From IMG/VR virus record IMGVR_UViG_637000265_000004: a stretch of 32,882 bases of DNA, one strand, 5' to 3'. Source of the DNA: a virus (lineage: Duplodnaviria > Heunggongvirae > Uroviricota > Caudoviricetes). Both the position numbers and the translations under genes were made by a program. The notes beneath the pieces were generated by a model, which had not been told where the DNA came from, did no database searches, and saw only the letters and a program-made list of their open reading frames with translations. Shown piece after piece: positions 11,444 through 14,198 of this stretch. Position 1 is the stretch's first letter; every line of letters starts with the position of its first letter.

Positions 11444-13048
11444 ATGATTCAGCTATCCAGTAGTCACAAACTTCCAGCAGTCTACTATCTCTACCAGCGT
11501 AACGGCGTCTACTACTTCCGTCTTAGGGTCAGACAATCAAACAATGATAGAATGACCTCAATATCATTACGGACCAAGGATAGACGCACCGCTATGGCTT
11601 ACTCAAGGCACATAAAGGCAGCACTCAAGGCAATACACGCAGACAGACCCAACGCTACCTATGAGGAAATGAGGGAACACCTTAAGGACATCGCTGAGTG
11701 TGAACTGTCTATGGGCCGTTCAGATCTCTTTGAGCCTGACATGAGGGATATCTACCGGGACCAATACGGAGAACTTGGTGAGAGCCTTACCGATGCTCTG
11801 GCTAGTGAGCCGCTAAGCATTGACCAGCATCGTTACATCAATGAGGCCCTGAAGGTGCTAAAAGCCTGTATGAGGCGTATCGAAGCGGGAGACAGTCAGC
11901 CTCTGATAGATTACGTCGATCTTTTTAATGATATTGATAGGCAAGATAACCAAGCAGACTCTGTGTCCCTATCTGTTAATGCTCCAGAAGTAAAACCAGA
12001 AGTTACGCCTAGCATTACCATAGCGAGCCTCTTTGAGCAATACGAAGCGGAGAACTATCAGAACTGGAAGCCTGCAACCTTAAGGGAAAACAAGGCGTCA
12101 CACGCTGCGTTAATCGAAATATTCGACCATCTGGGTCTCAATGCAGACGCTAACAGGGCTGACATGCTTAGGGTCCGTGATGTGCTCCAGCAGTTACCTA
12201 GGAACCGTAAGCAGCGCTTCAAGGATGTCCCACTTGCTGACCTGTTGAGCCGTGAAGATAAGACAGATTGTCTGGATGTCGTTACCATCAACAACAAGTA
12301 TCTTATTAAGATGGCTGCTGTCTTTAGGTGGGTTGTGCGCAATGACTTGATTAAAAAGAACATGACTGAGGGTCTGGAGCTTAAAGTCCCTCAGCGTAAA
12401 GCCTCAGGGGCCCGTAACGCCTTCTCTACGGAGCAGGTGGGGCAACTACTGGTCGCAGCTAAGGCATACTCTCAGAAGACCTCTGGTAAGCCGTATCATT
12501 ATTATGTTACCGCCTTGGCTGCTATCACTGGGGCGAGACTCAATGAAATAGCCCAACTACAGGTCAAAGACGTCAGGACCACTGAGGCGGGAACCGTTTA
12601 TATTCATATCAATGAAGACGATAGTAGTCTACCCGGTAAGAGCATCAAGAACGCTCATAGTGACCGCTGTGTGCCTCTGGTCGATGGGGCCTATGGTTTT
12701 ATATTGGCTGACTTTATGGCGCTTGTAGAGACCCGTAGAGGCGCTGACGGTGATGACGCTATGGTGTTCGATGGTCTGCGTCTCATGAAGAACGGTTACG
12801 GTGAGCAGGTGAGTAAATGGTTTAATCGGACGTTGTTGCCTAAAGTCCTCGTAGACCGTAGCGGCTTAGCGTTTCACTCGTTTAGACATACAGTTGCGAC
12901 CCAGTTAAAACAACATGGGGTCGAGTTGGCGTATGCACAGGCGATCATGGGGCATAGTTCAGGGTCTATTACTTACGACCGTTATGCTAAAGAGGTCGAG
13001 GTTGATAGGCTGGTCAATGTGATGGCTGATGTTTATAAGGAGACCTAG
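11444..13048 (+). CDS. Tyrosine recombinase / integrase, 534 aa
   Basis: C-terminal catalytic signatures TGARLNEI (box I Arg), HSFRHTVATQL (H-x-x-R) and GHSSGSITYDRY (Tyr nucleophile); lies 3' of the tRNA cluster. Confidence 0.85.
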   Translation: MIQLSSSHKLPAVYYLYQRNGVYYFRLRVRQSNNDRMTSISLRTKDRRTAMAYSRHIKAALKAIHADRPNATYEEMREHLKDIAECELSMGRSDLFEPDMRDIYRDQYGELGESLTDALASEPLSIDQHRYINEALKVLKACMRRIEAGDSQPLIDYVDLFNDIDRQDNQADSVSLSVNAPEVKPEVTPSITIASLFEQYEAENYQNWKPATLRENKASHAALIEIFDHLGLNADANRADMLRVRDVLQQLPRNRKQRFKDVPLADLLSREDKTDCLDVVTINNKYLIKMAAVFRWVVRNDLIKKNMTEGLELKVPQRKASGARNAFSTEQVGQLLVAAKAYSQKTSGKPYHYYVTALAAITGARLNEIAQLQVKDVRTTEAGTVYIHINEDDSSLPGKSIKNAHSDRCVPLVDGAYGFILADFMALVETRRGADGDDAMVFDGLRLMKNGYGEQVSKWFNRTLLPKVLVDRSGLAFHSFRHTVATQLKQHGVELAYAQAIMGHSSGSITYDRYAKEVEVDRLVNVMADVYKET

Positions 13049-13135
13049 AGGAGACCATAGTCTAGGATGACACTTACTACAGACCTGTGTGGTCATGTTT
13101 TTGACTCATAGTTTTCTCTACTTGTCAAGGATAAT

Positions 13136-13158
13136 TAATACGACTCACTATAGGGAGA
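13136..13158 (+). promoter_or_regulatory. Exact T7 RNA polymerase consensus promoter (-17 to +6)
   Basis: TAATACGACTCACTATAGGGAGA, 23/23 match to the T7 class III consensus; flanks do not match cloning-vector context. Confidence 0.8.
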
Positions 13159-13255
13159 AGGGACACAAAAAGTTTTCTCTTCTAGGATGACACTTACTAC
13201 AGACCTGTGTGGTCATGTTTTTGACTCATGGTTTTCTCTACTTGTCAAGGATAAT

Positions 13256-13278
13256 TAATACGACTCACTATAGGGAGA
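13256..13278 (+). promoter_or_regulatory. Exact T7 RNA polymerase consensus promoter, second tandem copy
   Basis: TAATACGACTCACTATAGGGAGA. Confidence 0.8.
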
Positions 13279-13471
13279 AGGGACACAAAAAGTTTTCTCT
13301 TCTAGGACAACTAACCGTAACTTATCGCATCCTTTCAGGGGCGGGATGACCAATTACAGACACCAAGCGTTCTACTTAAAGTGAATGCTTCCTGTGTGCT
13401 CTGGGTCAGTCGATAAGTGAATAGCAATAAGACACAATCATCTTAATTATGGTCTCTAGTCCCTACAGGGG

Positions 13472-13563
13472 CTTAACTTAAAGTTAACTTAAAGACACAA
13501 TTAAAGATTAACTTATAGTATTACTTAAAGTTAACTTAAAGACACAATTAGAGATTAACTTTA
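13472..13563 (+). repeat. AT-rich region with two ~45-bp direct repeats rich in TTAAAG motifs
   Basis: ACTTAAAGTTAACTTAAAGACACAATTA(A/G)AGATTAACTT occurs twice. Confidence 0.7.
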
Positions 13564-13660
13564 AGTATTAAATAAAAGATTTAATTAAAGACCAATTAAA
13601 GATTAACTCTAAGGGAATACCTTAAGGGGTGATGATATTTATAATAATCAATCACCAAAC

Positions 13661-13800
13661 CTATAGGTCTTCTCTAGGGTCTCTCTATAGGTCTTCTCTA
13701 TGGTCTCTCTATAGGTCTCTCTAGGGTCTCCTCTAGGGTCTCCTCTAGGCATTACCCCCAGAAGCTAACTCTATGGCCCTCTATGGTCCTCTATGGCCCT
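13661..13800 (+). repeat. Array of ~10-11-bp short repeats (GGTCTCTCTATAG-like, then CTCTATGGCCC-like)
   Basis: About 9 consecutive degenerate GGTCT(C/T)(C/T)TCTA(T/G)(A/G) units then 3 CTCTATGG(C/T)CC units; inverted copies CCTAGAGAGACCCTAGAG at 13846..13885. Confidence 0.7.
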
Positions 13801-14042
13801 GTACGTCATTCTTTAGGATGCCCTGTAGTTTCGTATAGCCTGATGCCTAGAGAGACCCTAGAGTGGCTCCTAGAGAGACCCTCCCAGTAGCTCCGCACAG
13901 CTACATCGTCATCATCATAGTATTCAATCTCAAAGTCATTCTGTTTGCATCCTGTTGTCCTGCTGGTCTCCCTTCGCTTGGGGACTTTGAGTAGGTCAGT
14001 GGGGGGGCGACTTCAGGGTGCAAACAAAAAGGAAATCAAGCG

Positions 14043-14198
14043 ATGTCTCAACAACCACAACAACCACAACAAGAAATCAGCATCATTAACCTCGACCAGC
14101 TTGTGTCCATGACCTCAGTTGAAATTGCTGAGCTGACAGGCAACGAGCACCGAAATGTCCTTCGTGATATTCGTAAGATGCTCGAAGAACTTAACGCG
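14043..14198 (+). pseudogene. Rha-family-like phage regulatory protein, 5' fragment truncated by IS1
   Basis: SVEIAELTGNEHRNVLRDIRKM resembles the Phage_pRha signature; ORF runs into the IS1 end at 14199. Confidence 0.5.

Follow-up and report, generated by a model that had tools for sequence, protein, structure and literature searches.

Small tRNA-Gly-integrating elements of Enterobacterales with T7-group phage promoters, an origin-like region and a concatemer-junction motif: candidate satellites of virulent podoviruses

We analyzed a stretch of 32,882 nucleotides filed as IMG/VR virus record IMGVR_UViG_637000265_000004 (hereafter the window, meaning the whole stretch). Positions 11330–14197 of the window are the left part of a small tRNA-Gly-integrating element that is truncated by an insertion sequence (IS) of the IS1 type. 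We consider it very probable that the element belongs to a family of natural mobile elements in which the cargo side is connected to the RNA polymerases of T7-group phages. Beyond this, we assign a probability of roughly 0.6 to the reading that the family consists of satellites of virulent T7-group (Studiervirinae) phages, which exploit their helper mainly by cis-acting mimicry. The satellite reading is based on a concatemer-junction mimic that tracks the helper, on an origin-like layout, on compact cross-genus units bounded by attachment (att) sites, and on a capsid-fold gene. An earlier inspection of the same DNA (the sequence-only reading) had already proposed an integrated element dependent on T7-group phages, acting as a satellite or as a phage-sensing module. 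Linkage within a family, switching of promoter types, covariation of the junction motif, att repeats and the capsid-fold gene lend strong support to this proposal, whereas the copy in the window turned out to be a remnant. It is a truncated relic, yet a valid pointer to the family.

T7 promoters downstream of an integrase gene

The following features make up the locus (coordinates refer to the window):

11019–11329: cluster of four tRNA genes, tRNA-Met, Arg, Thr and Gly (ARAGORN)
11255–11329, + strand: tRNA-Gly(tcc), borne by a lambdoid prophage, constituting attL (ARAGORN)
11330–11443, + strand: left end of the element, the attL-proximal arm, starting with TGACCTTTCTTAAAGTAC and kept in all relatives
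11444–13048, + strand: tyrosine integrase of 534 amino acids, apparently intact (ORF list, Pfam, PHROG)
11959–11978, + strand: concatemer-junction mimic CTCTGTGTCCCT/ATCTGTTA in the integrase linker, in the same orientation as the promoters
13061–13300, + strand: tandem duplication of 120 bp, each unit ending in a T7 promoter
13136–13158, + strand: exact T7 class III (late) consensus promoter, copy 1
13256–13278, + strand: exact T7 class III (late) consensus promoter, copy 2
13313–13425, + strand: conserved leader block 1 (alignment A3)
13440–13640, + strand: AT-rich origin-like block with TTAAAG-type repeats
13661–13882, no strand assigned: arrays of GGTCTCTCTA-type repeats (13661–13803) and their inverted partners (13846–13882)
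13925–14042, + strand: conserved block 2, a long imperfect hairpin (GGUCUCCC-loop-GGGGAC; alignment A4, fold z −2.7)
14043–14197, + strand: 5’ fragment (about 52 codons) of rha, the first cargo gene, encoding a Rha-family DNA-binding protein (Pfam Phage_pRha, 2.6e-9)
14198–14966, + strand: IS1 copy outside the element, marking its present right limit (self-BLAST)

The integrase carries the Pfam Phage_integrase domain (E 4e-18) and DUF6538 at its N-terminus, matches the PHROG integrase at 2e-44, and shows 77–96% amino acid identity to its relatives. It is followed by 994 bp (13049–14042) in which neither strand holds an open reading frame (ORF) of at least 60 amino acids. Within this non-coding region the 23-mer TAATACGACTCACTATAGGGAGA occurs in two exact copies on the + strand, one in each of two units (13061–13180 and 13181–13300) that are 99% identical. 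Together with their flanks the promoters match 26–27 nt of the T7 late promoters phi6.5, phi10, phi13 and phiOR. In contrast, none of 100 shuffled sequences contained a match to the 23-mer, even with three mismatches allowed. The sequence-only reading had described a 534-amino acid tyrosine integrase directly 3’ of the tRNA cluster, about 1 kb without an ORF of at least 60 amino acids, and two exact T7 promoters in a 120-bp tandem repeat, and all of this holds.

T7-type promoters are not used by the host RNA polymerase. Counts of host promoters and terminators were at chance level, with no excess of sigma-70 sites. A gene for a T7-type RNA polymerase was seen neither in the ORF list of the window nor in a domain scan of its large ORFs, which agrees with what had been noticed before. 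The largest ORFs of the window comprise 551, 534 and 533 amino acids, and the large ORFs scanned encode an IpaH-type effector, transposases, a transporter and a tail fibre.

A copy of the T7 concatemer junction inside the integrase gene

The repeat arrays downstream of the promoters had been said to recall the end of the T7 genome. This resemblance is real, but the sharpest evidence for it is located inside the integrase ORF and not in the arrays. Window positions 11959–11978 (CTCTGTGTCCCTATCTGTTA) are identical in 20/20 nt to T7 positions 149–168 (E 9.5e-5 for the search space), and a short-word BLAST of the element against the whole T7 genome returned this stretch as the sole match other than the promoters. 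The T7 terminal repeat is 160 bp long. The 20-mer is composed of its last 12 nt and the next 8 nt, including ATCTGTT, and thus spans exactly the terminal-repeat boundary, the site of the T7 right-end cut; the rest of the repeat is absent from the window.

ATCTGTT is the class II pause and termination signal of T7 RNA polymerase at the concatemer junction. The signal is strictly sequence-specific and orientation-dependent, and consists of these 7 nt on the non-template strand, following an A, C or T (10.1101/2021.01.11.426313; 10.64898/2026.02.12.705533). In the window the sequence CCCT-ATCTGTT-A (11967–11978) conforms to this rule on the + strand, which is the strand of the promoters. Pausing at the junction is said to be needed for the processing and packaging of T7 concatemers, a finding attributed to Lyakhov et al. 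in 1997 and to Zhang and Studier in 2004. In the phages compared the junctions read as follows:

T7: ctgtgtccct/ATCTGTTAC
T3: atgtgtccct/ATCTGTTAG
K11 (annotated junction): ctgtgtcc/CTATCTGTT/gg
Phages with AATTAGGTAG promoters: CTGTGTCCCTATCTGTTGG
K1F (Kayfunavirus): gagtctc/TATCTGTATC
EcoDS1 and ASO2B (Kayfunavirus): GTA variant as in K1F

These junctions form two groups: T7, T3, K11 and the AATTAGGTAG phages have ...GTGTCCCTATCTGTT, and K1F, EcoDS1 and ASO2B have ...GTCTCTATCTGTAT. The core is shared by K11 at its annotated concatemeric junction. The junction motif is kept in the relatives of the element, and its variant follows the promoter type, as elements with K1F-type promoters carry the K1F junction variant ATCTGTAT. 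Among 31 family members, TATCTGTTA was present in 15 of the 17 elements with promoters of the T7/K11 group, and TATCTGTAT (...GTCTCCCTATCTGTAT) in 14/14 elements with K1F-like promoters. The motif sits in the most variable part of the integrase, a linker in which amino acids and indels vary freely. A column-identity profile of the integrase around the motif was uninformative, since MAFFT misaligned the linker of the K1F-type members.

In comparison to the concatemer junction of T7, T3 and K11, 19–20 nt are identical in the element, including the repeat boundary and ATCTGTT, and the orientation is that of transcription from the promoters. Unlike in these phages, the motif is located inside a protein-coding gene and has no adjacent terminal repeat. 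The distance between junction and promoter also differs, with about 3 kb around a circle for the element and about 0.9 kb from phiOR in T7. In two relatives (L005:9888–9912 and L007:7549–7573; L numbers are our labels for individual relatives) we noticed the sequence ACTCACAGTCCTCTGTGTCTCC just upstream of the fourth promoter, in which a left-end-like CTCACAGT abuts a right-end-like CTCTGTGTC. It could be a miniature fused terminal-repeat mimic; taken alone it is not above chance.

An origin-like region between promoters and cargo

The AT-rich block downstream of the promoters has a GC content of 26%, compared to 49% for the window, and holds two direct repeats of 47 bp (13476–13522 and 13523–13569; 94% identical). 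In local alignments it reaches a score of 38 both with the T7 primary-origin segment (5925–6010) and with the region downstream of phiOL, while the shuffle maximum is 28–29. The short arrays that follow repeat every 24 and 10 nt, and T7 primase recognition sites (GGGTC, TGGTC) are densely packed on both of their strands. Including GTGTC, 23 primase sites were counted on the two strands of the 994-bp non-coding region. Dinucleotide shuffles gave an expectation of 5.2 ± 2.1 sites and the window has a background of about 5 per kb, so that the enrichment is about 4.5-fold. The seven 200-bp segments of the whole 32.9 kb with the highest density of primase sites are all located within 12901–13900.

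Promoters starting at 13136 and 13256, a block of 26% GC and dense primase sites thus follow each other in the layout of a T7-type origin, with longer spacing than in T7. The AT-rich block with two direct repeats of about 45 bp and the arrays of 10–11-bp repeats with inverted partners had been recognized from the sequence before, as had the similarity of tandem promoters plus AT-rich segment to the T7 primary origin, which is borne out by the alignment scores and the primase-site enrichment. The T7 primary origin (phi1.1A, phi1.1B) and the secondary origins phiOL and phiOR share with the window tandem promoters followed by AT-rich sequence of 26–28% GC, TTAAAG-type words and primase sites nearby. 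However, the promoters of the window are of the late class III consensus whereas the T7 primary origin uses the phi1.1A/B sequences, and the element has a conserved structured leader of 110 nt between promoters and AT-rich block that distinguishes it from the T7 origin. No extended homology was found between the origin-like region and the T7 origins.

The leader, block 1, contains a 46-nt core which is invariant from E. coli to Edaphovirga, and its conservation exceeds that of the integrase protein. In the predicted fold, ACUUAUCG (13320–13327) pairs with CGAUAAGU (13411–13418) to form an outer helix enclosing the hairpin CAUCCU/GGGAUG. The same outer stem is predicted in both divergent variants (z about −2), and one compensatory change in the helix, U-A to C-G, occurs in the lineage of L005 and L007. 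Speculatively, the phage polymerase may produce block 1 as a primer or leader RNA, or else the block may be bound by a protein. Block 2 is located directly upstream of the first cargo ORF and is kept in every subfamily regardless of which ORF follows; like hairpins present in T7 mRNAs it may, again as a speculation, serve in processing or stability. An Rfam scan of the non-coding region reported only tRNAs and matched neither of the two blocks. A 70-bp match to block 2 is also located on the Enterobacter hormaechei plasmid NZ_CP126871.1.

A family of compact units with mixed promoter arrays

The integrase was found in 383 of 5,426 complete E. coli genomes, always on the chromosome, with a divergence of 77–95% and without annotation. 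Part of the non-coding region is present in 351 of the 5,426 chromosomes and never on plasmids. Homologous elements thereby occur in about 6–7% of complete E. coli genomes, where they sit at the tRNA-Gly gene glyU, adjoining actS. Further relatives were identified in 14 genomes of ten other genera (Klebsiella, Lonsdalea, Rouxiella, Enterobacter, Citrobacter, Buttiauxella, Shimwellia, Pectobacterium, Serratia and Edaphovirga) and, using block 2 as a probe, in about 27 metagenomic contigs, all of which carry upstream phage promoters. The order integrase, promoters, leader is kept at glyU in E. coli, in the other genera and in the metagenomic contigs, and the element of E. coli is 92% identical to that of K. 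pneumoniae. A search of other enterobacterial genomes for the integrase linked to T7 promoters had been suggested earlier as a check; the integrase, phage promoters and the downstream region were seen together in hundreds of Enterobacterales genomes.

Complete members are bounded by direct repeats of the tRNA 3’ end (17–23 bp) and have a size of 4.2–6.4 kb. The units delimited in this way are:

L001: 4.2 kb
L015: 4.4 kb
L004: 5.6 kb, including an IS3-family element
L005, L007, L010 and L055: 6.4 kb
L002: 7.3 kb, including IS5

In the window, homology to the E. coli elements begins at 11286. The 3’ end of the prophage tRNA-Gly(tcc) (GGGTTCGATTCCC..GCCCGCTCCA) is similar to the 3’ end of chromosomal glyU, the target of the relatives, and in an alignment with glyU loci the sequence following the CCA was kept in all copies. 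The location of the window element in the prophage tRNA-Gly(tcc) instead of glyU shows that secondary tRNA-Gly targets are usable.

In nearly all relatives the stretch from the integrase to the first cargo ORF contains one to four promoters that share the core CACTATAGGGAGA and always lie on the cargo strand. The specificity boxes of these promoters (−17 to −8) differ among the relatives and include T7, K11, K1F-like and other types. The box AATTAGGGCACACTATAGGGAGA is identical to that of K11 phi9, phi10 and phi13, ACTWAACTATCACTATAGGGAGA is the promoter that precedes the capsid gene in Kayfunavirus (K1F-like) phages, and AATTAGGTAGCACTATAGGGAGA is present in 5–7 copies per genome in a group of phage contigs of 40–41 kb. 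For the ATGARACCCA and TTATACCCT promoter types no phage with an exact match was found in IMG/VR. Several types can be combined in a single element: in E. coli ESY003 and K. pneumoniae ATCC 13883, K11-like, T7, K11 and AATTAGGTAG promoters occur side by side. Judging from the sequences, such mixed arrays would be hard to explain unless there is selection for being read by the polymerases of infecting T7-group phages. In L001 (17545–17630) we observed an insertion of 80 bp relative to the window, flanked by CAGTAG and containing the degenerate T7-like promoter CAATACGACTTACTAATAGGAGA, which suggests that the non-coding region acquires and loses promoter cassettes.

The glyU locus is also a hotspot of tandem accretion. 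Other islands with integrases of their own flank the element (L001:19405–32000; L006:1–6200; L002:22477–32000). These islands carry an ABC-three-component defense system and an ars operon, and another small island has an annotated major capsid protein. Contigs that do not contain the 5’ half of the tRNA proved to be such tandem islands and not circles.

Cargo genes of complete relatives

The elements carry three to eight genes, at most one of which is a capsid-fold gene. In the complete relatives the first ORF always encodes a DNA-binding protein of the Rha, KilA-N or Ant type, and no terminase, portal or tail genes were found in the complete elements examined. Annotation of the cargo by Pfam, PHROGs, PADLOC and PDB sequence searches was mostly empty, and only the fold search was informative. 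The 6.4-kb members and L002, the closest relative of the window element, encode a DUF6971 protein together with a protein of about 375 amino acids that belongs to no family at the sequence level. A structural model of the latter matches HK97-fold capsid proteins, and Foldseek returned 125 viral capsid or head proteins at E 1e-3 or better. The 326-amino acid protein of the K1F-type L010 (hhalign 99.7%) and the 373-amino acid protein of L002 (55% identity) are homologues of this protein. A gene for a small protein (DUF6971 or 163 amino acids) followed by the gene for the HK97-fold protein forms a recurrent pair (L005:11315–12944, L002:20340–21962, L010:12345–13881). According to the model, the HK97-fold protein of the larger elements would represent a new, highly divergent lineage of capsid proteins.

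In many members a DUF4145 gene overlaps the integrase stop codon or is translationally coupled to the integrase. This gene is PD-T7-4, also named RAZR (PADLOC 8e-99), and was located at:

L004: 8751–9380
L005: 8735–9367
L006: 8031–8690
L010: 9616–10275
L015: 9616–10245

RAZR, a protein of about 210 amino acids with a zinc ribbon and a DUF4145/HEPN domain, is absent from the window, where the promoter region directly follows the integrase stop. RAZR is described as an RNase of abortive infection that responds to the portal of T7 and T3 (PMC13017515), and Vassallo et al. remark that PD-T7-4 “often overlaps an integrase gene” (PMC9519451). The integrase of this remark belongs to the family presented here.

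A possible cycle

The window element and its relatives are integrated mobile elements with their own integrase and att sites (attL only for the copy in the window), and they lack a gene set for autonomous virion production. Induction, replication and packaging by a helper are what we infer from cis-acting signals only, and would proceed in the following way. Without a phage the cargo side is expected to be silent, the host RNA polymerase being unable to use T7-type promoters. Upon infection, the phage RNA polymerase would fire the late-consensus promoters, so that leader, AT-rich block, repeat arrays and cargo become transcribed. A stack of promoters for several phage genera would let an element draw on more helpers. 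Transcription into an AT-rich segment with dense primase sites would mimic a T7 origin, and the replisome could amplify the element into concatemers. Excision would fall to the integrase, possibly with help from the DNA-binding protein of the Rha or KilA-N type that the phage induces.

On circles or concatemers the phage polymerase could run round into the integrase gene, where it would meet the junction copy with ATCTGTT. The mimic would then cause the polymerase to pause and allow cuts for maturation and packaging as in T7, creating ends at ...GTGTCCCT. The HK97-fold protein of the larger members presumably redirects or builds capsids, while RAZR/PD-T7-4 in many members would sense the T7 portal. 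After transfer, the integrase would insert the element at the 3’ end of a tRNA-Gly gene. In its full form, for which we see the odds as only slightly better than even, our proposal is that of an unrecognized, widespread family of T7-group satellites that work almost wholly by cis-mimicry: stacked promoters would serve as a combination lock for helper range, a helper-type origin and a junction signal in the integrase linker would provide for replication and packaging, and larger members would add a capsid-fold protein and many of them RAZR.

Evidence against the satellite reading and alternative explanations

A number of observations weigh against satellites. Support for induction, excision, replication and encapsidation alike consists of cis-signals only, and neither circular nor concatemeric (attP) copies were found in metagenomes. 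The AT-rich block begins about 160 nt past the second promoter, farther than in T7, and K1F-type members have no markedly AT-rich block. The covariation of promoter and junction rests essentially on two clades with few independent events, and L008 and L009 are exceptions to it. The junction motif also codes for a conserved S-L-S-V peptide, so selection on the protein could account for some of the motif's conservation. The bare 7-mer ATCTGTT is common, with seven copies on the + strand of the window against about two expected, and we therefore used only the 20-mer and its covariation as evidence. As long as the element is integrated, the mimic is located upstream of the promoters. The model thus requires that excision or the formation of concatemers comes first, and no trigger for either was found in the element. 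Neither the T7 left end (TCTCACAGT...) nor the terminal repeat is mimicked above chance in the element; the search yielded only matches of 8/9 nt at about the chance rate, one of them at the start of block 2. The 20-bp motif leaves out whatever else the T7 terminase needs. In addition, confidence in the capsid-fold model is only moderate (pLDDT 64, pTM 0.63) and the smallest members (4.2–4.4 kb) have no capsid-like gene. RAZR, as an abortive-infection RNase triggered by the portal, would seem to oppose the production of helper particles.

The absence of attP or concatemer contigs from the metagenomes, and with it of packaging evidence, also fits a defense island triggered by the phage polymerase, in which the promoters are an infection sensor, the origin and junction sequences are decoys or amplifiers, and movement occurs by other means. 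We regard this explanation, the main rival, as rather unlikely; it does not exclude the satellite reading, as many satellites also defend. PD-T7-4/RAZR is an experimentally proven anti-T7 abortive-infection gene, and its overlap with the integrase stop in many relatives favors defense (PMC9519451; PMC13017515). Stacked promoters for several phage genera would suit a broad sensor, and the cargo is variable and mostly of obscure function as in defense hotspots. However, RAZR is located upstream of the promoters, which therefore do not drive it in the integrated state, and both the window copy and its closest relatives are without RAZR. A defense island also leaves unexplained why complete members have an HK97 capsid-fold gene, why the terminal-repeat boundary is copied precisely and tracks the helper genus, and why the units are compact, att-bounded and shared across genera.

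The phage-type promoters, origin-like region, genome-end motif and, in some members, capsid-fold gene might also be expected of a temperate T7-like prophage that has decayed and lost its polymerase, replication and structural genes, and T7-like phages with integrases exist, for example LUZ100 (PMC10134795). Decay should leave a spectrum of remnants, whereas a compact unit of 4.2–6.4 kb with both att repeats recurs across genera. No gene for a T7-like RNA polymerase, DNA polymerase, portal or terminase was found in any member examined, and a phage with one polymerase has no need of promoters for two to four phage polymerases within a single element. Nucleotide similarity to T7-family genomes is confined to the promoters and the 20-bp junction, and at the sequence level the capsid-like protein resembles no known family of capsids. 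Such an origin is thus highly improbable. Even less credit is due to a vector contaminant, an assembly artifact or chance promoters. The exact 23-bp T7 consensus promoter is ubiquitous in laboratory vectors, but two exact copies stand against none in the shuffles, the region is flanked by a native integrase and a tRNA att site, and the non-coding region shows natural divergence on E. coli chromosomes while being absent from plasmids. Moreover, the family is present in other genera and in metagenomes, and relatives carry promoter types not used in laboratories. A verbatim fragment of a T7-family genome or a vector artifact had been named as a finding that would speak against the original proposal. 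The BLAST comparison with 50,697 phage records produced only promoter-length pieces of about 34 bp, and PLSDB (72,556 plasmids) gave no match except the 70-bp hit to block 2; besides the promoters only the 20-bp junction is shared with T7. Decayed prophage and artifact are both effectively excluded.

Relation to known satellites and implications

Satellites, including minimalist ones of virulent phages, are already known; what is new is the present family, together with an unusual mechanism that would consist largely of cis-mimicry. The closest comparison is PICMI, a satellite of about 6 kb from Vibrionaceae with a virulent helper, which is packaged as concatemers of roughly eight copies in full-size capsids (PMC10803314). 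Both are very small integrated elements with few genes, no full capsid module and anti-phage cargo, and packaging of concatemers in the manner of PICMI is what an element of 4–6 kb needs to fill the 40-kb T7 head. Unlike the family described here, PICMI has its own AlpA and primase, is located next to fis, and has no recognized helper promoters and no pac or cos mimic (PMC10803314). The present elements use a tRNA-Gly site and possess exact helper promoters, an origin-like region and a junction motif as well as, in larger members, a capsid-fold gene. The integrase and cargo sets of the two are not homologous. No AlpA or primase domain was detected in any cargo protein of the family and its hosts are Enterobacterales, which separates it from PICMI.

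The PICI and cf-PICI organization (int-alpA/stl-pri-rep plus a packaging module, 10–15 kb) is likewise not seen, as the elements comprise 4.2–6.4 kb and are without such domains. Compared to cf-PICIs and the Ccm of SaPIbov5, they have no portal, protease, head-tail connector or small terminase. They are two- to three-fold smaller than cf-PICIs, the proposed helper is a virulent podovirus, and the copy in the window has lost the capsid-fold gene. Neither the window nor the complete relatives contain a single-subunit RNA polymerase or replication and structural genes of the T7 type, as a T7-like prophage would.

Chung and Hinkle reportedly found in 1990 that plasmids with a T7 origin and a concatemer junction were replicated as concatemers and packaged at about 40 kb. 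These T7 transducing plasmids were engineered and contain several hundred bp of T7 end sequence with the whole terminal repeat, whereas the present element has 20 bp and the promoters, is chromosomally integrated and carries its own integrase. The PD-T7-4/RAZR system shares its genomic neighborhood with the family, and targeted term searches in the two papers on it brought up neither the promoters nor the origin-like region, nor the junction motif, nor an account of the whole element (PMC9519451, PMC13017515). In the searchable full-text literature, which leaves subscription-only papers outside, we found no description of chromosomal islands with T7-type promoters or of satellites of T7-like phages. 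To our knowledge, neither a natural satellite of T7 nor a T7 promoter occurring naturally in a chromosome belongs to what is generally known.

T7 and its relatives belong to the most thoroughly studied phages, and both phage therapy and biotechnology make wide use of them. If the satellite reading is true, T7, the textbook example of a strictly lytic and non-transducing phage, has hitch-hikers that move DNA among E. coli, Shigella and Klebsiella. With the family present in about one of 15 E. coli genomes, a response to T7-type polymerases would amount to a new route of gene transfer by virulent podoviruses. The family would also account for the genomic home of the RAZR/PD-T7-4 defense gene, and its promoter arrays would be a natural, readable record of the phage polymerases a strain expects. 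Furthermore, the minimal cis-signals of T7 for replication and packaging would become directly testable, and carrier strains may behave unexpectedly with T7 expression systems or therapeutic T7-like phages.

Truncation of the window copy and neighboring sequences

The rha fragment of the window is 88% identical at the nucleotide level to the intact rha of L002 up to position 14197, where IS1 begins. The right half of the element and attR are absent from the window; the right half was probably removed by an IS1-mediated deletion. Because IS1 has cut rha, and attR and the right half are gone, the window copy is a dead-end remnant that is immobile by its own integrase, having lost both cargo and attR. 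On this point the sequence-only reading needs correction. At most, the copy may still be transcribable, and perhaps replicable, by a T7-type phage.

Upstream of the tRNA cluster the window holds a lambdoid prophage remnant (1–11000) with replication genes and a Q-type antiterminator (10155–10829). In addition to the copy at 14198–14966 (+), self-BLAST detected IS1 at 8542–9310 (−) and 23443–24210 (+). Two IS3-family copies, each with a 272-amino acid transposase containing an rve domain, are located at 14967–15917 and 31445–32395, and a unit of the IS66 type at 24586–27225. A sitABCD-like ABC metal transporter (18903–22352, −) has ZnuA and ABC-3 domains, and an IpaH-type effector gene (28287–29942, −) encodes a type III secretion leucine-rich repeat domain and a NEL E3-ligase domain. 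The IpaH gene, the sit transporter and the dense IS copies point to the chromosome of a Shigella or enteroinvasive E. coli strain.

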